Virus record (IMG/VR): IMGVR_UViG_3300031813_000016
Span: 2,338-66,337 of that record
Source of the DNA: a virus
Lineage: Duplodnaviria; Caudoviricetes
Length of the DNA: 64,000 bases
Strand: one strand, 5' to 3'
A program made the position numbers and the translations under genes. Of the stretch, positions 5,329-33,540 are shown piece after piece. Each line of letters starts with the position of its first letter. Position 1 is the first letter of the stretch. The notes beneath the pieces were generated by a model. The model did no database searches, had not been told where the DNA came from, and saw only the letters and a program-made list of their open reading frames with translations.

Positions 5329-5344
5329 ATTTTCCTCCATAAAT

Positions 5345-6190
5345 CTATTTAACTTCATCATTTTTAATACTATTTGTAAAATCTTTTATGCCTTGTATAA
5401 CTTGTCTATCTTTAATTATTATATCTCTAAAATATGACCTGACTGAATCAATATTATCTTTAAAAGTTATATCTTTTGTAATTGGAACACCTATACAAAA
5501 AATCCAATTTACAGTACTATTAATATATGAGTTAAACCATTTTACTGTTGAATAATTATCTTTAAATCCCACATCAATAGTTAATTCAGAATAAGATTTT
5601 TTATCTTCTATTATTTTTTGGTATTCATTTTTTGAAAGAGCTTTATCATATTTAGGAATATAATCATCCCATTTTTTACCTATAGCTATTTTTTCATCAT
5701 CAAACCCTATAACTTTTGATAAAGGCCAATTTATTAATTGAATTATAAAATCTCTATCAAATACTACAACATATATATTTGAATAATTCAATAGATCCCA
5801 TAAACTTGTCAATGCTTTAAATTTATAAGAATTTAATGTTAGATAACTACTTTCTATTTTTGATAAAATTCTAACTCTAGATGCTAATATTTCTCCAATA
5901 TATGGTTTAGTAATAAAGTCACATATAGTAAAAACATCAAAGACTTTAAAATCAAAATTATCTATTTTGCTAGTAAATATCATTAGGATTGGAGTTTTTA
6001 AAATTTTAGATATCTCTGGAAAATCTTTAACATATGTATCATCTATAATTAATAAATCATATTTAATATCATGTAAATCTTTATATTCTTTAATATTTTG
6101 AATGCTGAAACATAAATGACAAAGGGAATTTTTAACAAAATTAATAATTTCTTCATTATTAGTTAGAACTAAAATATTTTTATTTTCCAT
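5345..6190 (-). CDS. Receiver (REC) + PAS domain protein, no output domain
   Basis: KNILVLTNN..I..FVKNSL, DLLIIDD (phospho-Asp position), PILMIF, DFITKP; then PAS-like YVVVFDRDFIIQLIN..LSKVIGF....IGKKW..YIP...KWFNSYI...IFCIGVPIT. Confidence 0.75.
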   Translation of the reverse strand: MENKNILVLTNNEEIINFVKNSLCHLCFSIQNIKEYKDLHDIKYDLLIIDDTYVKDFPEISKILKTPILMIFTSKIDNFDFKVFDVFTICDFITKPYIGEILASRVRILSKIESSYLTLNSYKFKALTSLWDLLNYSNIYVVVFDRDFIIQLINWPLSKVIGFDDEKIAIGKKWDDYIPKYDKALSKNEYQKIIEDKKSYSELTIDVGFKDNYSTVKWFNSYINSTVNWIFCIGVPITKDITFKDNIDSVRSYFRDIIIKDRQVIQGIKDFTNSIKNDEVK

Positions 6191-10065: not shown

Positions 10066-10983
10066 ATGACAAGATTACTAAAGGATTTTATTTTATCTAA
10101 AATTGAAGATCACATTGGTAATAATTACATTTTTCAAATTCCTGTTATATACAAAGGTTTACCAGAAGATATATTAACATATGGCACATTAGTTGCAATT
10201 AAAACCATAGATAAAAATGTAACAGATTTATCTGGGCAGCATACTACAAGTTATTGGAGATGTAGTAATTCCACTAAAGCTATTAAACCAAATCTTACCC
10301 AAAAAGAAATTGGAGAAATAATACTATCTCATTTGGAAAAAAATGGAAATGTAATACCTACCAAATGGATAGAAGATATGAAGATTACATCTGGAATTAA
10401 AGGCATAGAAAAATTAGTAGAATTAAAAAGCTCTTTACCTATACAAAAAACAGATCCAATTCCAGCTAAAGATGAAACAAAAATGATAAAAGAATTTAGA
10501 AATAGATTAACTGGAAATGTTGAAGAATTTGATACAGGATATGTTTTTAATGCGTATCATGTTTGGTATAATAAAGGTGGATTTTTTATTAAAATTATAA
10601 TTCATTGCCATAGTTGTAAAAAAGAAATATATGGTATAAGACGTATTTATAGAGTAAATGGGAAATTCAGTTCGCCTCAAAAATTTGAACCAAATGATCC
10701 ATTAGTAGTACTAGTTAAAAAGAATTCAAGAAAATGGATTTGCCAATGTTCAAAAATAACTCATCCTGAACCAATTCAACAAGTTCCAAAAGAAGTTGAG
10801 AAATATACAATGTCTGAAATATCTGAAATAATTGTAGAATCAAGAGGATTTCAAAACTTAGAAAAATATGTAGAAGATATGTTTTATCCTGATTCTTCGT
10901 TTTCAGCTGAACATTCAAGAGCATCATATTATTTATTTAGAGCGTTTAAAAAAGTATTATCAGAAATTGGAGTGTTACAATAA
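10066..10983 (+). CDS. Hypothetical protein (HCHSC and ICQC Cys motifs)
   Basis: 305-aa ORF with AAGGAG RBS. Confidence 0.7.
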   Translation: MTRLLKDFILSKIEDHIGNNYIFQIPVIYKGLPEDILTYGTLVAIKTIDKNVTDLSGQHTTSYWRCSNSTKAIKPNLTQKEIGEIILSHLEKNGNVIPTKWIEDMKITSGIKGIEKLVELKSSLPIQKTDPIPAKDETKMIKEFRNRLTGNVEEFDTGYVFNAYHVWYNKGGFFIKIIIHCHSCKKEIYGIRRIYRVNGKFSSPQKFEPNDPLVVLVKKNSRKWICQCSKITHPEPIQQVPKEVEKYTMSEISEIIVESRGFQNLEKYVEDMFYPDSSFSAEHSRASYYLFRAFKKVLSEIGVLQ

Positions 10984-11051
10984 GAAGTTAAACCTTAACC
11001 AATTCTATACATTCAAATGTATAGATAAAATCAAACAAAAAGGAGATTCAA

Positions 11052-11858
11052 ATGACTCAGAAAAAAGTGGAATTATTCATCATTGACCCGCAGGTAGGTT
11101 TTTGTCAGCCAGGTAAACCGTTATTTGTTCCTGGAGCTGATACAGATATGACTCGTCTTGCAACAATGGTAAAAAGAATTAAAAATGATTTAAATGATAT
11201 TCACGTTACATTAGATAGCCATCATTATTTCGATATTTCACACCCATCTTTCTGGGTGGACCAAGCAGGTAAAGAACCTGGTTGGTTTACTCCTTTATCT
11301 CTGGAAGATTTTCTTAATGGAAAACTTCGTCCTAAATTTCCTCAATTTTATGATGAAGTTAAAAATTATCTTCAAGCTTTGAAAGATAATAACAGATATA
11401 TGCATATTATTTGGCCTCCGCATTGTCTTATTGGCTCTGACGAACATGCAGTTATTCCTGATTTATATGAAGCAATTCATACATGGGAAATGGAATCTGA
11501 TGGAGCATTTATAAACTTTGTTACAAAAGGATCTAATTATTTAAGAGAACACTATTCTGGAGTTAAAGCTGAAGTTGAAGATCCTAAAGATCCCACAACC
11601 AAATTAAATACAAAACTAATTCAAACAATGGAACAAGCAGATGAAATTCCTGTAGGTGGGCAGGCTTCAACTCATTGTGTTGCAAATACAATGAGAGATG
11701 TTGTTAAAAACTTTAATAGTGCATTATCAAAATTTGTTATACTTGAAGATGCAATGAGTCCTGTTCCTGGTTTTGAAAAAGAAGCTGATCTTTTCTTTAG
11801 CGAAATGAAAGCTCTTGGTGTAAGGTTCTGTAAAACAACTGACTACAGTGTTTATTAA
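11052..11858 (+). CDS. pncA: Nicotinamidase/pyrazinamidase (isochorismatase-like cysteine hydrolase)
   Basis: IIDPQVGF (catalytic Asp), TLDSH..SH (metal ligands), WPPHC..G, KG..EHYS, GQASTHCV (catalytic Cys). Confidence 0.85.
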   Translation: MTQKKVELFIIDPQVGFCQPGKPLFVPGADTDMTRLATMVKRIKNDLNDIHVTLDSHHYFDISHPSFWVDQAGKEPGWFTPLSLEDFLNGKLRPKFPQFYDEVKNYLQALKDNNRYMHIIWPPHCLIGSDEHAVIPDLYEAIHTWEMESDGAFINFVTKGSNYLREHYSGVKAEVEDPKDPTTKLNTKLIQTMEQADEIPVGGQASTHCVANTMRDVVKNFNSALSKFVILEDAMSPVPGFEKEADLFFSEMKALGVRFCKTTDYSVY

Positions 11859-12297: not shown

Positions 12298-13053
12298 ATG
12301 CCTAAAATTCAATTGACTGACGAAACAATGATGATTAATACTGCTGCTGGTGTTGTGCAATATTCAGCAGTACATCCAGATCATCTTCAGGCAACCAAAT
12401 ATTGTCTGGCAACAATATGTGCTGATAATTCTTACAGTGTAAAACCTTTTAAAGATCTTCTTTTAACAGTTTACAAAGCTTCAGTGAATGCCTTAAAAGA
12501 AGATAAAGCTGTTGCAGCAAATATTTTAGTAAGAGCAACAACTTTTGAAGATAGTGATGTAACTGAAATTCATGGTTTTAGAATGCTTAAAACCATTAAT
12601 CCAGATACAGATTATAAACCTTTTGGGTGCAATGGTTCAACTCCATTGTTAGATGCAACATTTGATTCATTAACTTCTACTCTTGATTATGCAAAAACAT
12701 TGACTGATCAGGACTATACTGTTAATGGAATCATTTTTGTTATTACTGATGGATGTGAAAATTCATCAAAAATGATAAAAGACGTTTTAAAGATCAAAGA
12801 ACAATTGTCTAAAATAAAAGCAGATACAATTGAATCATTAAAAATGATTTTAATTCAAGTGAATGTTAATGACCAATATGTAAAAACTATCCTGGATAAA
12901 TTTTCAAAAGATGCAGGTTTTGATGATGTAATTGATGCTGGCGCAGCTGACCATAAATCAATTGCAAGGATCATAGGATTTATTCATAAATCCACATCTT
13001 CAACAAGTCAAGTAATCGGAACAGGAAGCGCTTCTCAACCCATAGCATTTTAA
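12298..13053 (+). CDS. vWA domain protein (TerY/YegL-like)
   Basis: MIDAS-type ADNSYSV, GSTPLLDA, FVITDGCENSS. Confidence 0.85.
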   Translation: MPKIQLTDETMMINTAAGVVQYSAVHPDHLQATKYCLATICADNSYSVKPFKDLLLTVYKASVNALKEDKAVAANILVRATTFEDSDVTEIHGFRMLKTINPDTDYKPFGCNGSTPLLDATFDSLTSTLDYAKTLTDQDYTVNGIIFVITDGCENSSKMIKDVLKIKEQLSKIKADTIESLKMILIQVNVNDQYVKTILDKFSKDAGFDDVIDAGAADHKSIARIIGFIHKSTSSTSQVIGTGSASQPIAF

Positions 13054-13063
13054 AATACCACAA

Positions 13064-13093
13064 GGAGAGGGAATCTTCAATGGTTCCCTCTCC
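13064..13093 (+). promoter_or_regulatory. GC-rich intergenic hairpin without U-tract
   Basis: ggagagggaa / ttccctctcc perfect 10-bp stem between the vWA and PP2C genes. Confidence 0.55.
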
Positions 13094-13106
13094 AAAGGAT
13101 AAATTT

Positions 13107-13970
13107 ATGATAAAAATTATTGAAGATTCTTTTTTCACAAGTGCTAAGAAACCTGAAAAGAATTGCCAAGATTATGTATTATCTGGTAATGACCCAATAC
13201 CTTATTTAATAGTCACTGATGGGTGTTCTGGGTCAAGATATACAGATGTAGGTGCTAGAATCATTGCACATAATGCTAAAAAATTTATTGAAAAAATTTT
13301 TAATAGAACTGATTTAGATCTTTTTGAGAATACCAAATTGACCCAAATGTTTTATGAAAATCTTGGTAACACTGTTATATTTAATTCAAAAAAAGCAACT
13401 GATAATATTCCAATTGAATGTTTAGATTCAACTTTAATTGTTGCTTTTGTTTATAATGATAAAGTTCATGTATTTATGTATGGTGATGGTGCAATTATAT
13501 ACCAATCTAATACTAAAGGATTAAATTCAATTATACCTGAATTTGAAGGTAATGCTCCTTATTATCTTTCTTATAAATGTAATATTAAAGCTGAAGCATT
13601 AATGGAAAGATTTGCCTCAACTTTTGAAGGTAGTAAAACATTAAAATACAATCTTAATTGTTATGATGTTGATATTAAATATAGTACTCAATTATTTCCA
13701 TATAATAATCCAAACATTTTTTCATTTGATGTTTCAGATCTTTCAATGTTGATGATTACTTCTGATGGTATTCTTTCATTTACTGATAGATGTAATAATC
13801 CAATTGATTTGAGTGATATAATTAAATTATTTACAGATATTAAAAGTAAAAATGGAGAATTTGTTAAAAGAAGATGTAATAAAGTTTTATCGAATTTAAA
13901 AGACCAAGATATTTTAAATTATGATGATTTAGCAGTTGCTACATTTTTGTTTACAGAGTTTCAACTTTAA
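13107..13970 (+). CDS. PP2C-family phosphatase (YegK-like)
   Basis: NCQDY, VTDGCSGS, DSTL, YGDG, ITSDGI, YDDLAV motifs. Start moved from 13080 to ATG 13107 (AAAGGA RBS). Confidence 0.85.
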   Translation: MIKIIEDSFFTSAKKPEKNCQDYVLSGNDPIPYLIVTDGCSGSRYTDVGARIIAHNAKKFIEKIFNRTDLDLFENTKLTQMFYENLGNTVIFNSKKATDNIPIECLDSTLIVAFVYNDKVHVFMYGDGAIIYQSNTKGLNSIIPEFEGNAPYYLSYKCNIKAEALMERFASTFEGSKTLKYNLNCYDVDIKYSTQLFPYNNPNIFSFDVSDLSMLMITSDGILSFTDRCNNPIDLSDIIKLFTDIKSKNGEFVKRRCNKVLSNLKDQDILNYDDLAVATFLFTEFQL

Positions 13971-13982
13971 AGGAGAATTAAA

Positions 13983-14169
13983 ATGGGATACAATTTAAAT
14001 TCAATGGATAAAGCAACATTAGTTGAAGTTGTAAATAATATGTATAAGAAATTAAAAGAAAAAAGTAAATACAAGTTTTAAATGTGAAGAATTAAGAAAA
14101 ATATGTATTGAATTAAAGCATAAACATTTTTTAGATACACCTTATTCAAGTTTTTATAAAACCTTATAA
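13983..14169 (+). pseudogene. Frameshifted paralogue of 14184..14372
   Basis: Strong RBS and ATG. One extra A in the A6 run at 14059-14064; after correction it reads ..KCEELRKICIELKHKHFLDTPYSSF, matching ..KRKDLERLIVKLKNTYFKDIPYTKL. Confidence 0.65.
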
Positions 14170-14183
14170 AAAGGAGAAATTAA

Positions 14184-14372
14184 ATGTCTGGAGGCTTTAA
14201 AGAAATTAATAAAGAAGCATTGATTGAGATAATTAATCATGTATATAGCGTATTAAAAACTGGAGAAAAAGTTTCATATAAATGGAAAAGAAAAGATTTA
14301 GAAAGACTGATTGTTAAATTAAAAAATACATATTTTAAAGATATTCCATACACTAAATTATTAGAATTATAA
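14184..14372 (+). CDS. Small hypothetical protein (tandem paralogue)
   Basis: 62 aa, AAGGAG RBS. Confidence 0.75.
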   Translation: MSGGFKEINKEALIEIINHVYSVLKTGEKVSYKWKRKDLERLIVKLKNTYFKDIPYTKLLEL

Positions 14373-14384
14373 AGGAGGCTAACA

Positions 14385-16094
14385 ATGCCTAAAGTGATTA
14401 TACAAGGTAAACCAAATGTAATTAATTTACATGATACAAATGACTTTAAAGCTTTAGGTGGAGAAGCCAAAATATATGAAAAAAATGGAATTATATATAA
14501 GATATATTTAGATCAATCTAAAATGATTCCAATGTCTAAAATACAAGAACTATCAGTTTTAGATCGTGAAAACATAGTAAAACCAAAAGATATTATTTTA
14601 AATGAAAAAAGTAGTGTAATTGGGTTTACAATGGATTATGTTAAAGGTTTGCCTATTGTAGCTTTATTTACTAATGATTTTAGAAATGATAACAATATTA
14701 CTCCAGAATCTACTTTAAAACTTGTTGAAAAAATACAAGAAGAAGTTGAATTTATACATAGTAAAAGATGTTTGGTTGTAGATTTAAATGAAATGAATAT
14801 ATTAGCAGATGAAAAGACTTATGAAAATCCATATTTTATAGATGTAAATTCATATCAAACTCCAAGTTTCAAAGCAACAGCAATAGCTCCTGGTATACGT
14901 GATTGGAAAACTAATACTTATAATACAAATACTGATTGGTTCTCATTTGCAATATTAGCATGTGAATTATTTATTGGCATTCATCCGTTTGAAGGAAGAC
15001 ATAATAAATATGATTCTACTCAATTTAAAGAAAGAGTTGTAGACTGTATTTCAATATTTAATAAAGATACAAGAGTTCCCAAAGCTACAAGAGATTTTAG
15101 TTTAATTCCAACTGAATATCAAAATTGGTTTATAAAACTATTTGAAAAAGGAGAAAGAATTCCTCCACCTACAATGGCTGGGTTAATGAATGTAACTCAA
15201 GTTAAAATACAAGTAATTCATTCTACTAATAATTTTATAATTCAATTTTTCAAAGAATATGATTCAGATATATATAAATATTTTACTTTTAATGGTAAAT
15301 CTGTCTCAACTCTGAAACATAAATTATATTTTGATAGATCTGAATATAACATTACTAGTCATAAAATTGATGTAATTTTTACACCAAAAATGTTAACTCC
15401 AATTCTATCAAAAATAGAAAATGGATATTTAGTTTTAAAAGATTTAACTACAAATAGTATTATTTCAACAAATACATTCTGTACCGAAAAATTTGTAATC
15501 AATAATGTTTTATTCTCAAGATTTGAAGGACAAGTTACTGAATGGAATATAGATCATTTTGGTGGAAATTTAATTTGTTCTGTTTCAACTATTTGGGGTA
15601 TAATGCCTAAATCTAGTCAGATTTTTGAAGGAACTATTTATCAAAATATTTTAGGAAATTCTTATTTCTTAATACCAGTTCCCATTCAAGGCAGTTCTAC
15701 ATCTTGTTATACTAAAGAAATAAAAGAATTAAATAATTACAAAATTTTAAATGCAAAACATGAAAATGGTTGTTTAATTGTAGTAGCAGATGATTTAAAA
15801 AATCAAAATCAATTTTATAAGAAATTAATTATAAGATTTGATAAGAACTATGATAACTATGATATCCGAGTAATTGATGTAAAAACTACTTTAATAAATT
15901 TTACAGTTCTTGATAATGGAGTTTGTGTAACAATACATGAGGATGACTCATTAGAAGTCTTCCATGTAAATATTGGATCTAAATTTACCAAAATTGAAGA
16001 TCCTGATATTAGCTCCAATATGATCTTGACAAAAAGTGGAGTAACTGTTATGTTTCATGTTCAAAATAAGTTGTATACTTTGAAAATGAAGTAG
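14385..16094 (+). CDS. Ser/Thr protein kinase (YegI-like) with C-terminal extension
   Basis: LGGEAKIY, YKIY, VVDLNEMNIL catalytic loop, IDVNSYQ, TDWFSFAIL..ELF.GIHPFEG. Confidence 0.85.
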   Translation: MPKVIIQGKPNVINLHDTNDFKALGGEAKIYEKNGIIYKIYLDQSKMIPMSKIQELSVLDRENIVKPKDIILNEKSSVIGFTMDYVKGLPIVALFTNDFRNDNNITPESTLKLVEKIQEEVEFIHSKRCLVVDLNEMNILADEKTYENPYFIDVNSYQTPSFKATAIAPGIRDWKTNTYNTNTDWFSFAILACELFIGIHPFEGRHNKYDSTQFKERVVDCISIFNKDTRVPKATRDFSLIPTEYQNWFIKLFEKGERIPPPTMAGLMNVTQVKIQVIHSTNNFIIQFFKEYDSDIYKYFTFNGKSVSTLKHKLYFDRSEYNITSHKIDVIFTPKMLTPILSKIENGYLVLKDLTTNSIISTNTFCTEKFVINNVLFSRFEGQVTEWNIDHFGGNLICSVSTIWGIMPKSSQIFEGTIYQNILGNSYFLIPVPIQGSSTSCYTKEIKELNNYKILNAKHENGCLIVVADDLKNQNQFYKKLIIRFDKNYDNYDIRVIDVKTTLINFTVLDNGVCVTIHEDDSLEVFHVNIGSKFTKIEDPDISSNMILTKSGVTVMFHVQNKLYTLKMK

Positions 16095-18904: not shown

Positions 18905-18969
18905 TTTTAAAAGGGAATGATAAAAATCTAGAATTTATCATTCCCTGTTTATTTAAAAGGAGAAAAAGA

Positions 18970-19623
18970 ATGGGTATTTTTGATGCATTTGAAAAAGCAG
19001 CAATAAAATCAGGTATATGGATTCCTGATACCAAAGAAGCCCCTGTAACAAAACAAGATGATAGTATAAAAAATACAACAAGCCAAATACTTCCATTACA
19101 AACTCCTTCTTTTTCACAGGATTCACAAATTCCTGATGAAAATATTTTTAATGCTATTTTACAGAATATTAATAATTCAGTTAAAGATAATAAAGTTAAA
19201 ATATTATTAGATACTGCTGAAAAAATGAAGGTAAAGATACAAGACGAAGGAATGAGGCTCCAAGGTGCTGCAGCAGTATGTGGTTTAACATCAGATGATT
19301 TATTTTTAACACTTAAACAACTGGAAGATAGTTTACATGTTGAAGTATCAAATTTTACAGTAAATGAAATTCCAAGAATGGAAAATGAAGTCAAAAATAT
19401 GCAAAATAATCTTGAAGAAACAAAAGCAACAATTGAAGATTTAACTAATCAATTAGAAGAAGCTTCAAAAAAGCAAACTGAATTAATGCAATTAATTAGT
19501 TCTAAACAATCTGAAAATAATACTACTGTTAATATTTTTAAAGCAACTGCTGAAAAAGTTCATGATTATCTCACCCAAATTTCAAAGAAAGTTACTATCT
19601 ATATTCAGGAGGGTACAAAGTGA
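18970..19623 (+). CDS. Coiled-coil protein, first gene of the PspA/ABC operon
   Basis: 217 aa, long heptad C-terminus; overlaps the next gene (GTGA). Confidence 0.7.
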   Translation: MGIFDAFEKAAIKSGIWIPDTKEAPVTKQDDSIKNTTSQILPLQTPSFSQDSQIPDENIFNAILQNINNSVKDNKVKILLDTAEKMKVKIQDEGMRLQGAAAVCGLTSDDLFLTLKQLEDSLHVEVSNFTVNEIPRMENEVKNMQNNLEETKATIEDLTNQLEEASKKQTELMQLISSKQSENNTTVNIFKATAEKVHDYLTQISKKVTIYIQEGTK

Positions 19624-20633
19624 GTGATACCAATATTAATAGAAATTTTTGGGGAACTAATGAAGGCACATGGGCGATGATAATAGGGGTGCCTTTAGGA
19701 ATAGCATTCTTATTTGGGTTCATTTTTAAACTAGTTCCATTAATTATGGTTGGTCTTAAAATGGCTGCGATGGCTGGTTTCTATATGATTGCTATAGGAA
19801 TATTAGCGTTTATAGCAATCATACTTATTGCTGCTGCTCCATCAATTTATAAATATTTAATGTTTAGATATCAGCTTTTAATAACTGCGGCATATCGTTC
19901 TATTTGGGAAGAAAAACCAGAAGAAGTTTATGAGTATGCAACTAAAGAGATAGCAAAAAGGAGGGAAGTTCTTTCAGCTGGGCAAAGACAAGTAAAAGGA
20001 GTTATGAATAATAATGATTCAATTTTAGCTAACTTTTCTTTAGATTTTGACCAGAGAAAAGCAAAAGCTGAAAGATTGCAGCAAAATGGTGATATGCAGG
20101 GAGCTCAAGCTGAATTAGTTAGAATTGGTAAACTTATGGAAGCTGGAAAAAATATGGCTGAAGCAAACCAAAAAGTTAAAATGTTCTATGATAAATATGT
20201 AAGGGGATTAAAAGCTTTAGACCAAGTTGAAGAAGATGCAAAATTAGATTTTCAAATTTCTTCTGGTAATTACCAAGCTGGAAAAAGTTTATCAAAATCT
20301 TGGGGTATGATGAAACAAGCATTCAAAGGTCAAGCCTTTGAAGATGATTTAAGGTCAAACTCGTTACAATTTATGAAACAAGATTTCCAACGTAAAATGG
20401 CAAATGTTGATGTATGGTCTGAAGAATGTGAAACTACCATAAAGCATATTGAGGATAAGAATCTTGATTATGCTGATGGTGCTTTGGCTATGTTGAACAA
20501 AGTAAATTCAATGGATTTTGGTTCAATTATCAAAAAACCTGAGCAGATCCAATTTAGTTCAGCTCAAGTATTAGATGTAACACCAGTATCAACTTCAACA
20601 AGACCATATTCTGAGATGATTAATAAAAAATAA
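19620..20633 (+). CDS. Membrane-anchored PspA/IM30-like protein
   Basis: Two N-terminal TM helices, then a helical pattern (PEEVYEY..KEI, KAKA..QQNGD..AQAEL, FMK.D...KMA) resembling PspA. Confidence 0.55.
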   Translation: MSDTNINRNFWGTNEGTWAMIIGVPLGIAFLFGFIFKLVPLIMVGLKMAAMAGFYMIAIGILAFIAIILIAAAPSIYKYLMFRYQLLITAAYRSIWEEKPEEVYEYATKEIAKRREVLSAGQRQVKGVMNNNDSILANFSLDFDQRKAKAERLQQNGDMQGAQAELVRIGKLMEAGKNMAEANQKVKMFYDKYVRGLKALDQVEEDAKLDFQISSGNYQAGKSLSKSWGMMKQAFKGQAFEDDLRSNSLQFMKQDFQRKMANVDVWSEECETTIKHIEDKNLDYADGALAMLNKVNSMDFGSIIKKPEQIQFSSAQVLDVTPVSTSTRPYSEMINKK

Positions 20634-20650
20634 AAGGAGGTGTTATTTTT

Positions 20651-20767
20651 ATGGGTTGGGTAGTATTTGTACTGGTGTCGTTTGGAGGAATCCTTGGTTA
20701 TTGGATACGAGGTTGGGTTGATAAAAGGAGAGCTAAAAAGAAGGAAGAAATGGACAAGGAGAAATAA
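20651..20767 (+). CDS. Small single-TM protein (38 aa)
   Basis: GGAGG RBS; MGWVVFVLVSFGGILGYWIRGWVDKRRAKKKEEMDKEK. Confidence 0.65.
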   Translation: MGWVVFVLVSFGGILGYWIRGWVDKRRAKKKEEMDKEK

Positions 20768-21003
20768 TGCCAGAAATTTTTCATACTCCAAATAAACCAA
20801 CAAATGAAGAAGCAAGATCTGAATATATCATTTTTGATTTATGTTTTATAATTGCAACAGGAGGGTATATTCTTAGTAGTTTCAACCTTTACAAAGCAAT
20901 TCCACTAATGATTTTTCTTTTAGTTCTTGATTATTTCATTATTGGTTTCATAATTAAATTAATAAATAAAAAGAAAAATATAACAATTAAAGGAGATAAT
21001 TAA
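20767..21003 (+). CDS. Small two-TM membrane protein
   Basis: 78 aa with two hydrophobic segments. Confidence 0.65.
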   Translation: MPEIFHTPNKPTNEEARSEYIIFDLCFIIATGGYILSSFNLYKAIPLMIFLLVLDYFIIGFIIKLINKKKNITIKGDN

Positions 21004-21004
21004 A

Positions 21005-22909
21005 ATGGGGCTTAATCCAAACATATCTAAATTCGGAAAGTTGATTGGAATTGCAGCACTTGTTGGAGGTGTTGTTTTTTATGGAACAAGACCTGGTCAT
21101 TTCATGAGTATGGATTCAATAAAAGCAGTATTCCAGAAAAAAGTTGATCTTCCTAGTGTTGCTCCACTCAAAAATGTTACAAATGTTCCTCTCCTTCCTT
21201 TACCTTCAAAAAATGTTATTGGAACTGGTCCTAGCTACAGGGTTGAAGTTGCTCCTTGGAGTGCCCAAAATGGAGCATTCCTTGCTAATGGTGGACCTGT
21301 TACAACTGAGGGATCTATCCTTGCTGGTCTTGGTATTACCAATTTAAAATTCATTAGGCAGGATAGTTTTAAACAACAATCGGATGACCTTATTGCTTAT
21401 ATGAAAGAATGGAAATCAATGGGTGGTGGAAAAGCTAATCCCAATAAAGGTTGCCAATTTATATCTTTAATGGGTGATGGTTCTTCTTCATACCTAAGGG
21501 CAATCGTTGCTGAATTAACATCTGCTGGTTTTCATCCTCAAATAAAAGTTGCTCTTGGAAAGAGTGCAAATGAAGATGGATTCTGGGGTCCTAAAGAATG
21601 GAAAGATAAACCAAGTTCTATGAAAGGTGGAGTTGTTATTGGGGTGCTGTATGATGGGGATATGAACCTACCTTTGAAATATTGCCCGGATAATGATGTT
21701 CAAATGAATCCCAATATTAAGACATATGATCCTGATCGTATGAATATTATTCCTGCTCAAGATGATGATTTCCTAAAAGCAGTTGACCAATATAATGTTG
21801 GGGTTACAGAAGAACGTGAAATTTCACATAATGGAATTCTCACTGGAAAGAAAATTAAAATTACCACAGATAAATCAAAATCATCTACTACAAGTTTTAC
21901 TATAGCTTCAACTATTGGCGGTACACTTTATGTTGAAGCAGGTGTTGTTACATATACACCCGGAGACGTAAGAATTACAAAAGGAAAAGGTGGTCTTTTT
22001 CCAATTGTAACAACTTATGATTATTATTGGCAGATGCCTGATTTCCTTGTAACAACTAAAGAATGGGCAGATGCAAATCATAATGAAGTTAAGTCTATCA
22101 TCAAAGGTTTCTTACTTGGTGGTTCACAAGTCAAAGTTCATGATAAAGCTTTATTCAGAGCATGTGAAATTGCTTGTGATTTATATAAAGGAACTGGAGA
22201 AGAAGGAACTCCAAAATTCTGGTATACCAACTTTAAGAAACATGAAGTATCAAGTCCGGATGGTTCAGTTGATAAAGAAGGAAAACCTACAGGAAAAACT
22301 ATTCAAGTTAATGTAGGTGGGTCTATGAACTTCTCAATTGAGGATAACATTGTTGCATTTGGTCTTGAAAAAGGAGATGGTGGACCTGCTCAATCAACCT
22401 ATACAGTTTTTGCAGATAAAATGGTTGAATTATGGCCTGATAAGATGAAAGATTATCCTGCATTTCAAGATGTTTTTGATCCTTCATTCTTAAATGAAAT
22501 TACAAAAGAAACCACACTCAATCAAGAATTAACAATGAAACCTGATGTAGATGGTGCACCAATTCGTGAAACCATATCTACATCAAATAAGTCAATTCAA
22601 TTTATATCTGGAAGGTCTGAATTGACAGCAGAAGGTCGAAAGGAATGTAAAAAGCTTTTTAACGATGAGAATATTACCGGTCTTAAGCTTTTAATTACTG
22701 GGCATACTGACCGACATGGTTCTCATGAAACAAATATGAAACTTTCAAAAGATCGAGCAGAAACAGTTAAAAGGTTTTTGGCCAATCTTGGGTATAAAGA
22801 AGACTTAATTGATACCGATGCAAAAGGTGATACTGAGCTTCTTGACCCTGCAAATAATAGTACTGCTGATGCAAAGAATCGTCGAGTTGTGATCCAAATG
22901 GGTAGGTAG
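21005..22909 (+). CDS. ABC substrate-binding (NMT1/SsuA-like) + OmpA C-terminal domain fusion
   Basis: N-terminal anchor. SBP-like ..VTYTPGD..DFLVT.KEWADAN..VK.IIKG. OmpA motif IQFISGRSELT..LLITGHTDRHG....NMKLSKDRAETVK.FL...G...NRRVVI. Confidence 0.85.
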   Translation: MGLNPNISKFGKLIGIAALVGGVVFYGTRPGHFMSMDSIKAVFQKKVDLPSVAPLKNVTNVPLLPLPSKNVIGTGPSYRVEVAPWSAQNGAFLANGGPVTTEGSILAGLGITNLKFIRQDSFKQQSDDLIAYMKEWKSMGGGKANPNKGCQFISLMGDGSSSYLRAIVAELTSAGFHPQIKVALGKSANEDGFWGPKEWKDKPSSMKGGVVIGVLYDGDMNLPLKYCPDNDVQMNPNIKTYDPDRMNIIPAQDDDFLKAVDQYNVGVTEEREISHNGILTGKKIKITTDKSKSSTTSFTIASTIGGTLYVEAGVVTYTPGDVRITKGKGGLFPIVTTYDYYWQMPDFLVTTKEWADANHNEVKSIIKGFLLGGSQVKVHDKALFRACEIACDLYKGTGEEGTPKFWYTNFKKHEVSSPDGSVDKEGKPTGKTIQVNVGGSMNFSIEDNIVAFGLEKGDGGPAQSTYTVFADKMVELWPDKMKDYPAFQDVFDPSFLNEITKETTLNQELTMKPDVDGAPIRETISTSNKSIQFISGRSELTAEGRKECKKLFNDENITGLKLLITGHTDRHGSHETNMKLSKDRAETVKRFLANLGYKEDLIDTDAKGDTELLDPANNSTADAKNRRVVIQMGR

Positions 22910-22932
22910 TAAAATAACAAAAGGAGAATAAA

Positions 22933-23253
22933 ATGGGATTTCTTAAAGATGCAGCAGAAAAAGTTGAACAACTTGGTGGTAAAGTTGTAGAAGGAGCTCA
23001 AGCTCTTGGTGAAGCTGTGCAACATGGAGTAAATTCATTTAACGAAAAACTGCAAGAAAACCTGGGAGGGTCTATGGAAACCAACGAAGTTAAGGAAAGT
23101 GTAGCAAAATTCTGTTCACGTTGTGGCGGTGCTCTCAAAGATCGTCCGGAAGAAGTTGATGGGGATAAAGAATGCACAGTTTGCAGTCATATCTTCCATG
23201 AATGTGACTGTGGTTGCCACGGTCTTTGCGACAAGGGAATTAAACAAGCATAA
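22933..23253 (+). CDS. Hypothetical protein with C-terminal Cys/His zinc-ribbon cluster
   Basis: CSRCGG, CTVCSH, CDCGCHGLC. Confidence 0.65.
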   Translation: MGFLKDAAEKVEQLGGKVVEGAQALGEAVQHGVNSFNEKLQENLGGSMETNEVKESVAKFCSRCGGALKDRPEEVDGDKECTVCSHIFHECDCGCHGLCDKGIKQA

Positions 23254-23266
23254 TAAATAAACTGTC

Positions 23267-23298
23267 ATTGGGACTCCTGGGAAACTAGGAGTCCCAAT
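23267..23298 (+). promoter_or_regulatory. Intergenic GNRA-capped hairpin before the permease RBS
   Basis: attgggactcctgg-gaaa-ctaggagtcccaat, no U-tract, followed by GGAGG and a GTG start. Confidence 0.6.
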
Positions 23299-23308
23299 CG
23301 GAGGAATT

Positions 23309-24091
23309 GTGAAGTGGTTATTTATACCTAATACAAAGTTGAATCATAATCAATATATTTTAGTTAGAGTTTTCATTTACTCTATTATCCTTTTTATATG
23401 GTCTTTGAGCCATTCAACATTAATCCCTCCTATTCAAAAAATAATTTTTTCTTATCAATCTTTAGTAGTTCAAGATAAATTATTTCTTGAAATATTAACC
23501 AGCTCTATATTATTTGGAAAATGTCTTTTCTGGGTGATTTTAATTTCTTTTATATCTTCATATCTATCAGTAATTCCAATAATAAATCCTGTAGTACAAT
23601 TAGAAGCAAAGTTTAGAGCAATATCAATTGTAGGTATTCAATTGTTTTTTACCACAATAGCATCAGATGATTATCATTTAAAAATATGGATTATTGGTTT
23701 CTTTACAACACCATGGTTGATAACATCAATGCTTGATATAATTAAAAATATCCCACCCGAAGAATATGATCATGCAAGAACATTAAGATTTCCTGAATGG
23801 TATGTAACTTGGCATGTTGTAATTAGAGGTCAGTTTCATTTAGTTATGGATGCAATTATTCAAGTTTCATTAATGATTGTAGTATTCCTTCCTGTAGCTG
23901 AAAAAATTATTAAATCAGATGGAGGTATTGGATATCTTTTAACTAGTCTTGAAAGATTCCATGACAATACAAAGATCTATGCTATTGATATTTTATTAGT
24001 TATTTTAGTTTCATTATTAATAACTATTCTTAAATGGATTAGAGATTTGTTTTGCCCTTATGCTGAGAAAATTGAAGGAGTACAAAAATGA
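23309..24091 (+). CDS. ABC transporter permease (NitT/TauT, SsuC-like)
   Basis: Multiple TM helices; EAA-like IPPEEYDHARTL...W..V..HVVI; AEKI...DGGIGYL. Confidence 0.85.
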   Translation: MKWLFIPNTKLNHNQYILVRVFIYSIILFIWSLSHSTLIPPIQKIIFSYQSLVVQDKLFLEILTSSILFGKCLFWVILISFISSYLSVIPIINPVVQLEAKFRAISIVGIQLFFTTIASDDYHLKIWIIGFFTTPWLITSMLDIIKNIPPEEYDHARTLRFPEWYVTWHVVIRGQFHLVMDAIIQVSLMIVVFLPVAEKIIKSDGGIGYLLTSLERFHDNTKIYAIDILLVILVSLLITILKWIRDLFCPYAEKIEGVQK

Positions 24092-24876
24092 GTCAAACTC
24101 TTTTAAAAATAACTGACTTAAGACATAGTTTAGGTGGTAAAATAATATTAAAAAATTTCAATGGAAAAATAGAAACTGAAAAAATAGATGAAGGACATGG
24201 TGAAATTATAGCAATACTTGGGCCTTCTGGTGTAGGTAAAACTACATTATTTAAAATTCTTTCAGGTATTATATATCCAGATAAAGGAACTATTGAATTG
24301 TTGTCCAGAAAAGACAACATGAAATACATACATCCACGCCAAGGTGTTATGGGTGTTGTTGCTCAAAAATATCCTTTATTTAAACACTTAACAGTTTTAG
24401 ATAATTTAAAAGTTACAAAAAAATCAAAAGATGAATGTATTGAAATGTTGAAATCATTTGGTTTAGAAGAACATGTTGATAAATATCCATGTGAATTGTC
24501 TGGAGGCCAACAACAAAGAATTGCAATAGCTCAACAGATATTATGTAGCGATCAATTTTTATTATTAGATGAACCATTTTCAGGTGAAGATTTACTTTCA
24601 AAATGTGAAATTTGTAAAATGCTAAAACGTACTGCAGATTTAAATGAAACAAATACCATCATAGTTATAACACATGGTATAGATGAAGCAATAAAAGTTG
24701 CAAATAAAATTTGGCTAATTGGTAGAGATAGAGATGAGAAAAAAAATATTATACCAGGAGCATATATAAAAGAAGTAGTTGATATTGATGCAAAAGAAAT
24801 GTCACGAAAATGTTGTAGCACCCCACAATTAAGAGAAGTGTCAGATTACATAACTAATAAATTTAAGGATCTATAA
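24088..24876 (+). CDS. ABC transporter ATP-binding protein (TauB/SsuB-like)
   Basis: GPSGVGKT, VAQKYPLF, LSGGQQQR, LLLDEPFS, ITHG. Confidence 0.95.
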   Translation: MSQTLLKITDLRHSLGGKIILKNFNGKIETEKIDEGHGEIIAILGPSGVGKTTLFKILSGIIYPDKGTIELLSRKDNMKYIHPRQGVMGVVAQKYPLFKHLTVLDNLKVTKKSKDECIEMLKSFGLEEHVDKYPCELSGGQQQRIAIAQQILCSDQFLLLDEPFSGEDLLSKCEICKMLKRTADLNETNTIIVITHGIDEAIKVANKIWLIGRDRDEKKNIIPGAYIKEVVDIDAKEMSRKCCSTPQLREVSDYITNKFKDL

Positions 24877-24877
24877 T

Positions 24878-25027
24878 ATGAAATATCTTTTAATTCTTAT
24901 TATACTTTTATTATTATGTTACATTTGTTGGTATGATATAATACTTCTATTTTCATGTTTAATTGTTATATCATTTTTAGGATTTATTTGGCAATTTAAA
25001 AAATTAGGAAAAATTAAGGAGAAATAA
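24878..25027 (+). CDS. Small membrane protein (49 aa)
   Basis: MKYLLILIILLLLCYICWYDIILLFSCLIVISFLGFIWQFKK...; not in the ORF track. Confidence 0.5.
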   Translation: MKYLLILIILLLLCYICWYDIILLFSCLIVISFLGFIWQFKKLGKIKEK

Positions 25028-25030
25028 ATT

Positions 25031-25579
25031 ATGTGGTATCCATTGTTGGTATTTGGTAGTATTATATTTTGGATAGTTATTGGTCTTGATATTTTAGTTT
25101 CAATAATTTTTATCTATAACGAGAAACCTAAAGCATTAACATGTTATTTAATTGGAGTTATTGCATTCTTTCAACTATTTAGTAATGTAAATATTTGGAA
25201 ATTATTCGTAAATAATTGGTTTACTTGGGTATGTTATTTTGTAGTATATCTAATAGTAGGGTTTGTTTGGTCAATATTTAAATTTAAGATGAAAACTTTA
25301 GAACATAAAAAATTATTAGAAACTTCACAAATAACATCTCATTCAGCAGAATATCAATGTTCATTTGAAGCACTATCTTCTGATGTTGCTAGTTGGGTAA
25401 CATATTGGCCCTTTTATGTAATAGTGTTTTTAATTGAAGATTTTATAACAAAAATTATAACATTTGTTTGGGATGCATGTTTAGTTGGAATATTTAAAAG
25501 AATTTATAATAATGATGTAAACCCAATTTTAAGAGAAAGAATTAAAGAAAGAGACGAAAAAGGAAAAAGAAGAACATAG
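25031..25579 (+). CDS. Membrane protein
   Basis: 182 aa, 3-4 TM segments, W..YWPF motif. Confidence 0.7.
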   Translation: MWYPLLVFGSIIFWIVIGLDILVSIIFIYNEKPKALTCYLIGVIAFFQLFSNVNIWKLFVNNWFTWVCYFVVYLIVGFVWSIFKFKMKTLEHKKLLETSQITSHSAEYQCSFEALSSDVASWVTYWPFYVIVFLIEDFITKIITFVWDACLVGIFKRIYNNDVNPILRERIKERDEKGKRRT

Positions 25580-25606
25580 AATGAACAATAGAAGATAAGT
25601 TGTATT

Positions 25607-25639
25607 AAAATTGGGATAAGTCTTTCCCAATTTTTTTTT
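25607..25639 (+). terminator. Intrinsic terminator
   Basis: aaaattggga/tcccaatttt stem plus T9. Confidence 0.8.
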
Positions 25640-25725: not shown

Positions 25726-26076
25726 ATGCAAGTTCAAGGTATGAACCCACAGGAAGCAATGGTAGCTCGCAAGCTGGTGAACGAAATCATCAGGAATCAG
25801 TACAAGATCAGAGTCTTCGCAGAATTTGATCTTCGGTCATCTCGGGAGAGGTTGAGAAGTTATTCTTCATCTCCAAACACGATCTGCACCCTGTTTATTA
25901 ATAGGGTCGGAACAAAGTGTGTTGCAGTAGAGCCCGACGGGTCTATTACCATAATAGATCCGAAAAAGAATCTGATGGGAGAACCAGTGGAATCAATCGT
26001 TAATCACTTTCAAAACCTGATGATCGAAAAGATTCAAAAGTGGAACACTTACCTTAGTAGGGTTACAAAAAAATAG
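25726..26076 (+). CDS. Hypothetical protein, visibly more G+C-rich than its surroundings
   Basis: 116 aa; GGGAG RBS; has its own promoter motif and terminator. Confidence 0.75.
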   Translation: MQVQGMNPQEAMVARKLVNEIIRNQYKIRVFAEFDLRSSRERLRSYSSSPNTICTLFINRVGTKCVAVEPDGSITIIDPKKNLMGEPVESIVNHFQNLMIEKIQKWNTYLSRVTKK

Positions 26077-26091
26077 ATAACTGTTTAAGAG

Positions 26092-26118
26092 AATTGGGGC
26101 ATTAGCCTCAATTTTTTT
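26092..26118 (+). terminator. Intrinsic terminator
   Basis: aattggggc-atta-gcctcaatt plus T-run. Confidence 0.75.
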
Positions 26119-32088: not shown

Positions 32089-33540
32089 TTAAGCACCGAT
32101 AGTAAGAGTTGCAATCCCGTTGCTACGCACTAAGGCTGTTGCGTACCTACTAAGGATGGTAAGTGATGGAATGGCACCAAGAGGATAAGGATGAAGTACT
32201 GCTGGAACGTATGGGCTATAAAAGAATATGCTCTTTAATTCTTCTTGAGGTTTATAAATAAGAATCATCTGACCTTGAGAAACAACGCTCGAAGTAAGAA
32301 CTTTCCATTTCCCACCGGCTACTGTTGCTGAACGATATCCCACATCACCATCCAGACTAGAAGTACCGGTATAATTGAATCCCTGAAGGTCTTCAAGAAT
32401 AGCCACGTCAAGGGGGTTAGCAAGAATAGTGTTAGCTGCATCAATATTCGTATCAGTGTACACCTGAGCCGACAAGGTGTTCAGCACTGGGAGAATGTTT
32501 TCATGCCAATATTTGTTACCCCAACTATAACCAACAGGAGCAGTTCTATTGAATGAAGCAGTATGACTAGATGCATTCAATCTGTTATTTGCAGTAATTA
32601 AGGAGTTAATAAGTTCACGGTCAATATCAAGAGCAATCTGTTGACCTAAAAGGTTAACAATTTCTGCCTGCATGGAAACGTCAAACAGAGCTTTTAAATC
32701 TTGCTCCATATTGATGGTCCAGTTAGCAGAAATCTGACGATCCTTAGCATAGAGACGAATTTTATCAACAGTTAACTGGACAGTAGGATTGATCTTATTA
32801 TATTCCAGAGAAACAGAAGTCTGATAAGAAATCCATTTGGTTTTTCCAGTTGCAGAAAGGCAAGTCACTGTGCCAGAAAGATAATTAACAACACCAGAAA
32901 GAACGTCAGTATCGCTATTAGCATAAGTTACAGCTGCAGAAAACTGGCCTTCAACAGCAGGAACGATAGAGACGTTCATGAAGTTCGTACCATCTTCAGA
33001 AACTGAAAGAATCTGCCAATCTCTTTCTAAAGTTGCATTGCTGTTATTCTGACTCATTGCACCAAGAACGTCAAAGTTGGTAGAAGGAACTGCCATAGTA
33101 GCAGTAGTCTGAATACCCATAGTAGGGCCATTAGAAACGTCGCCAGTTACAGCAGGTGCAGGATACTGAGTACCATTAGTAGCTGCAAAAGTTGCACGAA
33201 TGAATGCCTTTACACATTCAGGTTTATCCATAGGAGAAACAGTTACTGCTTCTTTTGCAACAAGCTTAGGATAGAAAACTCTAAGAATAGGAAGAGTTAA
33301 ACTTTCATAAGGGTTAATAGCAAACATAGAGTTTTCAAGCAGGTTGATACGAGTATTTTCAGCTAACAGTTTGAATGTAGCTGCGTCTTTCTTGCTTTCA
33401 ATAGACTCAGCAAGACCATTAACGTAGCAAGTAAAGGATTTGTCATCAACAAGAATTTGTTTGAGGTTACCGGGCTTAGAAGGGTCTACACCAGAAACCT
33501 TTCGCACTGTGCGATAGACTTCAGTTAACATTTCTTTCAT
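32089..33540 (-). CDS. Major capsid protein (T4 gp23-like, HK97 fold)
   Basis: LPILRVFYPKLVAKEAVTVSPM..P; IRLYAKDRQISANWTINMEQDLKALFDVSMQAEIVNLLGQQIALDIDRELI; high-expression codon bias. Confidence 0.9.
   Translation of the reverse strand: MKEMLTEVYRTVRKVSGVDPSKPGNLKQILVDDKSFTCYVNGLAESIESKKDAATFKLLAENTRINLLENSMFAINPYESLTLPILRVFYPKLVAKEAVTVSPMDKPECVKAFIRATFAATNGTQYPAPAVTGDVSNGPTMGIQTTATMAVPSTNFDVLGAMSQNNSNATLERDWQILSVSEDGTNFMNVSIVPAVEGQFSAAVTYANSDTDVLSGVVNYLSGTVTCLSATGKTKWISYQTSVSLEYNKINPTVQLTVDKIRLYAKDRQISANWTINMEQDLKALFDVSMQAEIVNLLGQQIALDIDRELINSLITANNRLNASSHTASFNRTAPVGYSWGNKYWHENILPVLNTLSAQVYTDTNIDAANTILANPLDVAILEDLQGFNYTGTSSLDGDVGYRSATVAGGKWKVLTSSVVSQGQMILIYKPQEELKSIFFYSPYVPAVLHPYPLGAIPSLTILSRYATALVRSNGIATLTIGA

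Follow-up and report, generated by a model that had tools for sequence, protein, structure and literature searches.

PspA and ESCRT-III proteins are the membrane-repair polymers of the cell. An operon in which proteins of this kind stand beside a transporter was described in bacteria by Ravi et al. (2024, mSystems; PMC11237479), who gave OGG56892.1 of Candidatus Handelsmanbacteria as an example, with the gene order PspA, PBPB+OmpA, permease, ATPase, transmembrane (TM)-Snf7 and double AAA+, and who proposed a link of membrane remodelling with solute transport. A later preprint counted 189 pspA genes in huge phages, 15 of the 189 beside a complete ATP-binding cassette (ABC) transporter, and proposed membrane-stress relief as the role of phage PspA (Yuan & Chen, 2026; bioRxiv 10.64898/2026.10.24.761521). 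The kind is known from such comparative genomics, and no experiments on the function of the module were found in the literature that could be searched. Here we describe a module of this kind in a large freshwater phage (Duplodnaviria; Caudoviricetes), located at positions 18970-24876 of a stretch of 64,000 nucleotides, hereafter the window, which makes up nearly all of the 66-kb IMG/VR viral record IMGVR_UViG_3300031813_000016 (positions 2,338 to 66,337; CheckV completeness estimate 21%).

An initial annotation of the window, made from the letters and a list of open reading frames (ORFs), had noted a tightly coupled run of genes at this place, and all of them were found there. The module ORFs lie on the plus strand, as do the small ORFs that follow them, the hairpins of the unit and the kinase triad described below, and are joined by 4-nt overlaps (the gene at 19620-20633 and the gene at 24088-24876 each overlap the preceding one) or by short gaps with Shine-Dalgarno-like sequences. 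Five of them recur together in other genomes: those for a coiled-coil protein, a TM-anchored PspA-like protein, a substrate-binding protein (SBP) fused to an OmpA-like domain, a permease and an ATPase. The set is an intact, phage-borne copy of a conserved envelope module, and we favour, with moderate confidence, the reading that a wall-tethered importer stands beside a membrane-stabilising PspA-like polymer during infection.

Results

A predicted wall-tethered importer

The 634-aa protein encoded at 21005-22909 had been called an SBP-OmpA fusion, and the structural evidence agrees. Pfam recognised the C-terminal OmpA domain only (51.8 bits, 1.1e-13) and did not see the SBP fold; of 44 relatives, 5 had weak matches to NMT1. 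With residues 40-520 as the query, 164 full-length relatives of about 600 aa were retrieved, and an AlphaFold2 (AF2) model computed with 44 relatives as alignment (predicted local distance difference test score [pLDDT] 88.8, predicted template-modelling score [pTM] 0.86) laid out the chain as a hydrophobic helix that would form a TM anchor (residues 5-27), a low-confidence linker, a two-lobe alpha/beta domain (about 76-505) and an OmpA-like domain (about 520-634). Foldseek with this model returned NrtA, CmpA and TauA, and VIA-align superposed the SBP domain on TauA 6ssy with Z 25.6 (290 of 297 residues), on CmpA with Z 23.2, on SsuA with Z 22.3 and on NrtA with Z 21.9. As modelled, the domain has the TauA/SsuA/NrtA fold of class II periplasmic binding proteins. 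The C-terminal domain aligned with TagL, OmpA and Pal at Z 17-18.5 (root-mean-square deviation 1.5-1.8), and D569 and R584 of the OmpA motif were invariant among the 44 relatives; from OmpA/Pal structures we take these to be the residues that contact the peptide stem. According to the model, the N-terminal end of the protein sits in the inner membrane, and the C-terminal end should bind the cell wall.

The remaining transporter genes encode a 260-aa permease (23309-24091) and a 262-aa ATPase of TauB/SsuB length (24088-24876). The permease, described as SsuC-like in the initial annotation, scored above the cut-off of Pfam BPD_transp_1 (29.8 bits; cut-off 26.4), and a profile built from seven permease sequences had a single PDB match, CmpB 9u9z (E 2.2e-4), the permease of a bicarbonate transporter in the same transporter family as the structural neighbours of the SBP. 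It has TM windows, and its EAA-like loop reads EEYDHARTL, with A, R, T and L unchanged across 7 homologues. The ATPase matched ABC_tran at 1.9e-31, an NCBIfam taurine ATPase model aligned over residues 6-257, and the motifs reported for it can be read directly from the translation (Walker A GPSGVGKT, a Q-loop, LSGGQ, Walker B LLLDE and the H-loop ITH). Taken together, sequence matches and models place the transporter parts in the NitT/TauT-type class of type I ABC importers.

The PspA-like protein and its coiled-coil neighbour

The 337-aa protein encoded at 19620-20633 has strong TM windows at residues 26-44 and 54-72, and positive charges after the second of these put the remainder on the cytoplasmic side. 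Built from seven syntenic homologues, a profile gathered 1420 representatives of uniform length (about 340 aa), and 18 of 67 diverse members of this family matched Pfam PspA_IM30 (PF04012) at E <= 0.05, the best at 2e-5; these matches far outnumbered those to any other family. When two Hymenobacter genomes were searched in six frames with PF04012 (curated cut-off 33.9 bits), the search found the canonical pspA gene and also the orthologue of the 337-aa protein, encoded immediately upstream of the SBP-OmpA gene; the orthologues scored 40.1 bits, over the cut-off, and 33.1 bits, at profile positions 23-139. The window protein is a full-length member of the family that has these PF04012 matches.

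The AF2 model of the 337-aa protein (pLDDT 72.6 overall, 80-98 in the hairpin) consists of a long hairpin of two helices, 100-155 and 159-235, followed by a helix at 264-297. All of the top 14 Foldseek matches of this model were Vipp1 or PspA, and in an exhaustive VIA search PspA 4whe ranked third (Z 12.7) and Vipp1 fifth (Z 12.4), with model residues 77-232 aligned to Vipp1 2-157. P100, the invariant proline of the family, aligns with the conserved EDP that starts helix 1 of PspA, and a PDB profile search with the family gave weak matches to Vipp1 and CHMP (E 0.08-1.5) amid coiled coils. The N-terminal amphipathic helix alpha-0 of PspA is not present, and the two hydrophobic TM helices are found instead, which fits the "TM+Snf7" kind of variation described by Ravi et al. 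(PMC11237479). The family-level evidence supports kinship with PspA/IM30, of which the 337-aa protein would be a diverged form integral to the membrane, distinct from canonical PspA. The earlier description of a TM-anchored PspA/IM30-like protein was borne out in this sense, by PF04012 matches within the family and by Foldseek rather than by a direct Pfam match of the window protein, which on these grounds does look PspA-like.

Directly upstream, at 18970-19623, lies the gene for a 217-aa protein that has no TM segment and is predicted to be cytoplasmic; its stop codon overlaps the start of the PspA-like gene. It falls in a conserved family whose members measure about 230 aa (165 matches, all named "hypothetical"), is homologous to the 223-aa neighbour at the same position in Xanthocytophaga (E 7e-5), and adjoins the TM-PspA-like gene in 98 surveyed loci. 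Its Pfam matches are to generic coiled-coil families only, and PDB and Atlas searches gave generic coiled coils or unnamed clusters, in keeping with its label as a coiled-coil protein. An identification of this protein as PspA was considered on the strength of a weak TIGR02977 match (E 0.007) and rejected, as other searches did not back it up; homology between the 217-aa and 337-aa families was also rejected (hhalign probability 7%). The 217-aa protein shows no specific PspA signal, and no soluble PspA was recognisable in the module.

Distribution and gene order

A tblastn search of 50,697 deposited phage records yielded a single full-length relative, in the 462-kb uncultured huge phage LR756500.1, which shares the gene order of the window at 29% (SBP), 32% (permease) and 40% (ATPase) identity. 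A search for related viral loci with a single protein found none, and an alignment-based scan did find them: the SBP-OmpA gene is present in at least 129 IMG/VR contigs and in at least 579 GTDB species genomes. The bacterial carriers include Hymenobacter, Emticicia, Fibrella, Saprospiraceae, Chitinophagales, Armatimonadota, Longimicrobiaceae and Acidobacteriota. By the IMG/VR classification, two of the large carrier contigs (436 kb and 479 kb) are complete genomes with direct terminal repeats. The capsid protein of the window and Terminase_6N were sought in five large IMG/VR carriers of the module, two of which IMG/VR lists with direct terminal repeats, and gave no match, which is uninformative.

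Hidden Markov models of each component were scanned over the best 80 loci of each of the two sets. The core of SBP-OmpA, permease and ATPase, in that order, was nearly universal in these loci. Among the viral loci, 71 had the coiled-coil gene and 74 the TM-PspA-like gene; among the bacterial loci the counts were 27 and 32. Wherever they occurred, the two genes lay upstream of the core and were oriented as it is. All five genes are thus what the sampled viral contigs usually carry, whereas among the sampled bacteria only a minority have the complete set. The neighbourhood survey that the initial annotation had called for therefore speaks against its view that such a set of genes is unusual for a phage: the five-gene order recurs in most of the 80 sampled IMG/VR contigs, in LR756500.1 and in some Bacteroidota, Gemmatimonadota and members of other bacterial phyla, and its kind was already published.

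Several loci carry additional genes. In the closest phage relatives, the PspA-like and SBP-OmpA genes are separated by an extra gene that encodes a free NMT1_3 binding protein (L005 9006-9893, L009 5454-6350 and L011); at this place the window has just two small TM ORFs of 38 and 78 aa. In L009, a 434-aa Band_7/SPFH gene follows directly after the ATPase (10285-11589). Some Bacteroidota copies (L004 6835-7866, L099, L096 and L160) have a 343-aa Ppx-GppA-like gene (ASKHA fold, weak Pfam match) inserted between the TM-PspA-like and SBP-OmpA genes, an insert that is absent from the phage copies.

Origin of the window copy

Matches to PHROG families in the window include a major head protein (32089-33540), a portal protein (46828-48801), tail-fibre-like proteins (82-5361), a helicase and a family B DNA polymerase. 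The genes for major head, portal, tail fibre and DNA polymerase lie on both sides of the module, which places it inside a phage genome. GC content across the window is 22-36%, and GC at third codon positions (GC3) of the module genes is 0.12-0.21, which is phage-like. In a FastTree phylogeny of 155 SBP-OmpA proteins, the labels viral and bacterial changed 8 times, compared with about 51 times in shuffles. The window protein and those of three phage-like contigs, about 50% identical to it, form a group that neighbours a viral-only clade of 30 members that includes LR756500.1, the joint viral-only branch comprising 34 sequences; bacterial copies are at most 36% identical to the window copy. Long branches make the deep order of this tree unsure.

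An assembly artefact or a recent host-derived insertion could be suspected from the GC of the module, which at 0.33 is slightly above that of its flanks, and from the few IMG/VR "viral" contigs that match bacterial chromosomes identically. Against this stand the structural and replication genes on both sides, the phage-like GC3 and the position of the nearest relatives on other phage-like contigs. The phage occurs at lake and bioanode sites. Near-identical sequence was found in metagenomes from four studies, and in the data of one independent study the module is tiled, together with the sequence on either side, by short error-free contigs whose depths match. Given the viral-only branch of 34 sequences, the tiling at matching depth and the phage-like GC3, a chimeric or recent host insertion is very unlikely, and we regard an artefact of either sort as exceedingly improbable.

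Near the YqeY gene, at 15846 and 16933, contigs from independent metagenomes part from the window. One contig joins 26172 to 29715, omitting 3.5 kb; these divergences are strain variants of this phage in accessory regions that flank the module. Two cases bear on the labels used in such surveys. The SBP-OmpA gene of the IMG/VR "viral" locus L017 is identical to one on the Hymenobacter mucosus chromosome (L166), probably a provirus call or a false positive, and the "bacterial" metagenome-assembled genome locus L101 is nearly identical to the viral locus L012, probably a phage contig binned with a bacterium. Viral and bacterial labels in these surveys accordingly need care.

Transcription unit and neighbouring genes

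A stem-loop with a T-rich tail at 18912-18946 (RNA fold -16.8 kcal/mol, z -3.15), between a gene for a 298-aa protein and the first gene of the module, is the likely upstream limit of the unit, and a terminator-like hairpin with a T run at 25607-25634 is its likely end. The transcription unit would then probably extend from about 18950 to 25634, a little past the end given in the initial annotation. Two further genes fall inside it: a 49-aa single-TM ORF (24878-25027), tightly packed behind the ATPase, and a window-specific gene for a 182-aa multi-TM protein (25031-25579), the last before the terminator.

The two small membrane proteins between the PspA-like and SBP-OmpA genes are a 38-aa ORF with one TM segment (20651-20767) and a 78-aa ORF with two TM helices (20767-21003). 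The former, shorter than the limit of the ORF lister, was picked out by eye and then translated; it has a strong Shine-Dalgarno sequence, and its stop overlaps the start of the next gene. No homologue of it was noted among the related loci, whose BLAST comparison did not include this ORF. A 42-aa ORF with a TTG start (20667-20795) was rejected as a gene, being non-hydrophobic and overlapping the better 38-aa ATG ORF with its Shine-Dalgarno sequence. Between the SBP-OmpA and permease genes, at 22933-23253, lies a gene for a 106-aa cytoplasmic protein that had been called a Zn-ribbon protein; its cysteine-rich pattern was confirmed, and Pfam support for the family is weak (Zn_Ribbon_1, E 0.0017). 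BLAST found no homologues of the 78-, 106-, 49-, 182- and 298-aa ORFs across 170 related loci, and from these comparisons the 106-aa protein appears unconserved beyond the closest relatives. No family was found for the 298-aa protein, and its Atlas model was poor.

The claim that the SBP gene has capsid-like codon bias held up. When 40 genes were ordered by how capsid-like their synonymous codon use is, the SBP-OmpA gene ranked 5 and the 106-aa gene 3, and the permease and ATPase genes were low. A perfect 14-bp stem-loop without a T tract (23267-23298; -27.7 kcal/mol, z -6.87) sits between the 106-aa gene and the permease gene, and is absent in the closest relative, L005, where those genes overlap. 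Judged from its folding and from the contrast in codon use between the genes on its two sides, this hairpin could be a candidate mRNA stabiliser or attenuator that sets a high ratio of SBP to permease and ATPase, and by analogy it may resemble binding-protein operons that keep the upstream message more stable.

A 116-aa ORF beyond the unit (25726-26076, plus strand) has a GC3 of 0.47, compared with the 0.10-0.15 usual in this genome, and comes second in the window for capsid-like codon use; it matches no Pfam family and is bracketed by the terminator-like hairpins at 25607-25634 and 26087-26118. These features suggest a single-gene unit with very high expression.

Upstream of the module by 3 kb, with YqeY, NADAR and other genes in between, is a triad of genes at 12298-16094 for a vWA-like protein (251 aa), a PP2C phosphatase (296 aa) and a Ser/Thr kinase (569 aa). 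The PP2C (13080-13970; PP2C_2, 1.9e-12) and kinase (14385-16094; Pkinase, 1e-11) genes were found by Pfam; the vWA label rests solely on similarity to the weak VWA gene of L010, Pfam giving nothing on the window copy. Triad and module are no more than 10 kb apart in the window and in L010, L011, L012, L028 and L040, six viral loci from at least four SBP clades; 0 of 75 bacterial loci show this arrangement. From this distribution it is a possible phage-specific regulator of the module.

Discussion

Proposed function and alternatives

In the infected host, which is probably a diderm, the 634-aa protein would span the periplasm, with its N terminus in the inner membrane and its C terminus on the wall. 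The SBP domain would sit between membrane and wall, over a permease dimer of the CmpB/SsuC type that the ATPase energises, and would pass a small solute to this pair for import. On the cytoplasmic face, close to the transporter, the TM-PspA-like protein and its coiled-coil partner would assemble and stabilise or repair the inner membrane, and the cell would thereby be kept energised throughout infection. The binding protein may be made in excess over permease and ATPase, as codon use and the internal hairpin suggest. A sealed, energised inner membrane is a plausible benefit for a phage with a large genome, and the strict co-conservation of importer and PspA-like pair argues that the two halves work together.

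Several observations weigh against this proposal. Many bacterial loci have SBP-OmpA, permease and ATPase alone, so the transporter can work without the PspA-like pair. The window's 337-aa protein itself had no sequence match in Pfam, PHROG, NCBIfam or PDB, and hhalign of its family with four canonical PspA sequences was weak (probability 1.6%; the DP motif was aligned). IpaB, CT398 and other unrelated coiled-coil hairpins tie with PspA in VIA Z, so that the fold by itself is not diagnostic of PspA. Finally, the published bacterial operon has an AAA+ ATPase, and none was found in 17-26 kb of the window; with no AAA+ and no recognisable soluble PspA, the module is a reduced variant of the PspA-ABC-PBPB/OmpA operon class. 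A more far-reaching version, which we think possible and rather doubtful, is that huge phages maintain a self-contained membrane-maintenance machine, in which the PspA-like polymer is physically coupled to the wall-tethered importer and is switched by the triad in some lineages, the phage form having long evolved apart from the host form and being needed, in long infections, to keep the envelope intact and energised or closed to rival phages.

If the genes served plain nutrient scavenging, the importer would be a TauABC- or NrtABC-like system that supplies phage replication with a sulfonate-, nitrate- or bicarbonate-like solute, and the PspA-like and coiled-coil genes would be mere neighbours. 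The membership of SBP, permease and ATPase in the NitT/TauT importer class is what such a system would have, many bacteria carry the three-gene core alone, and the closest phage relatives add a free NMT1_3 binding protein. However, the PspA-like pair accompanies the transporter in about 85-90% of viral loci, in several separate clades and in constant order, and a nutrient SBP has no obvious need of a wall tether, for which reasons we consider this explanation unlikely. Alternatively, the genes could form a sensor and actuator and not an importer; the wall-tethered binding domain would then report the state of the envelope or a periplasmic signal and the ABC ATPase would drive assembly or disassembly of the PspA-like polymer, replacing the AAA+ of the published bacterial operon, which is not present here. 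A double tether is unusual for a receptor of a diffusing solute, and NrtA-like domains act as regulatory domains in CmpC/NrtC (matches to 9uak and 8wm7), but in fold the permease is an ordinary type I importer, EAA loop included, and we know of no precedent for a type I importer that remodels an ESCRT-III-like polymer. We judge this arrangement improbable as well.

The module could also act in superinfection exclusion or conflict between phages, by altering the envelope against injection by later phages, possibly switched by the vWA-PP2C-kinase triad. The recurrence of the triad beside the module in six viral loci and no bacterial one would fit such a role, as would the high expression that codon use suggests for the SBP-OmpA gene and the occurrence of OmpA/MotB-like wall anchors in Zorya (a match to ZorB). 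PADLOC, on the other hand, gave domain-level matches alone and no system, the module is also chromosomal in free-living bacteria with housekeeping neighbours, and the triad is present in a minority of loci; a device of this kind seems quite unlikely to us. The membrane-stabilising reading, with importer and PspA-like polymer side by side, is the one we retain.

As a compact and widely conserved case, the module bears on how PspA and ESCRT-III proteins are recruited and regulated outside the classic Psp system, since the predicted polymer-like protein is itself membrane-anchored and its gene is locked genetically to that of a wall-tethered transporter. Its frequency in large phages, and the existence of viral-only clades, suggest that huge phages regularly manage the envelope of their hosts. 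The five module proteins are small enough for direct expression and testing.

Comparison with known systems

Like the operon of Ravi et al., the module combines a membrane-anchored, divergent PspA/Snf7-like protein, a protein with a signal or TM segment, a binding domain and OmpA, a TM permease and an ABC ATPase. It differs in its order, coiled-coil, TM-PspA-like, SBP-OmpA, permease and ATPase, and in being carried by a phage; the comparison with OGG56892.1 was made by the described parts. With the loci of Yuan & Chen it shares the presence of PspA in phages with large genomes, with SBP, permease and ATPase adjacent, whereas the preprint mentions no OmpA-tethered SBP, TM anchor or coiled-coil partner. 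Canonical PspA and Vipp1 (IM30) resemble the 337-aa protein in the predicted helical hairpin core, the family-level PF04012 matches and the conserved proline at the start of helix 1. The 337-aa protein has two TM helices in place of alpha-0, however, the module is without PspB, PspC and PspF partners, and divergence of the window copy has gone too far for Pfam to match it directly.

The envelope protein has the architecture of the MotB, PomB, TssL and YiaD type, with an N-terminal inner-membrane anchor and a C-terminal peptidoglycan-binding OmpA-like domain with conserved Asp and Arg, but here a full substrate-binding domain of about 430 residues is placed between anchor and OmpA domain. The transporter as a whole is most readily compared with TauABC, SsuABC, NrtABCD and CmpABCD (NitT/TauT family, TC 3.A.1.16-17), to which it is similar in the SBP fold, the CmpB-matching permease and the TauB/SsuB-like length and motifs of the ATPase. 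Unlike in those systems, the SBP of the module, which is 9-13% identical to solved SBPs, is TM-anchored and fused to an OmpA-like wall-binding domain, and the transporter genes are linked to PspA-like genes.

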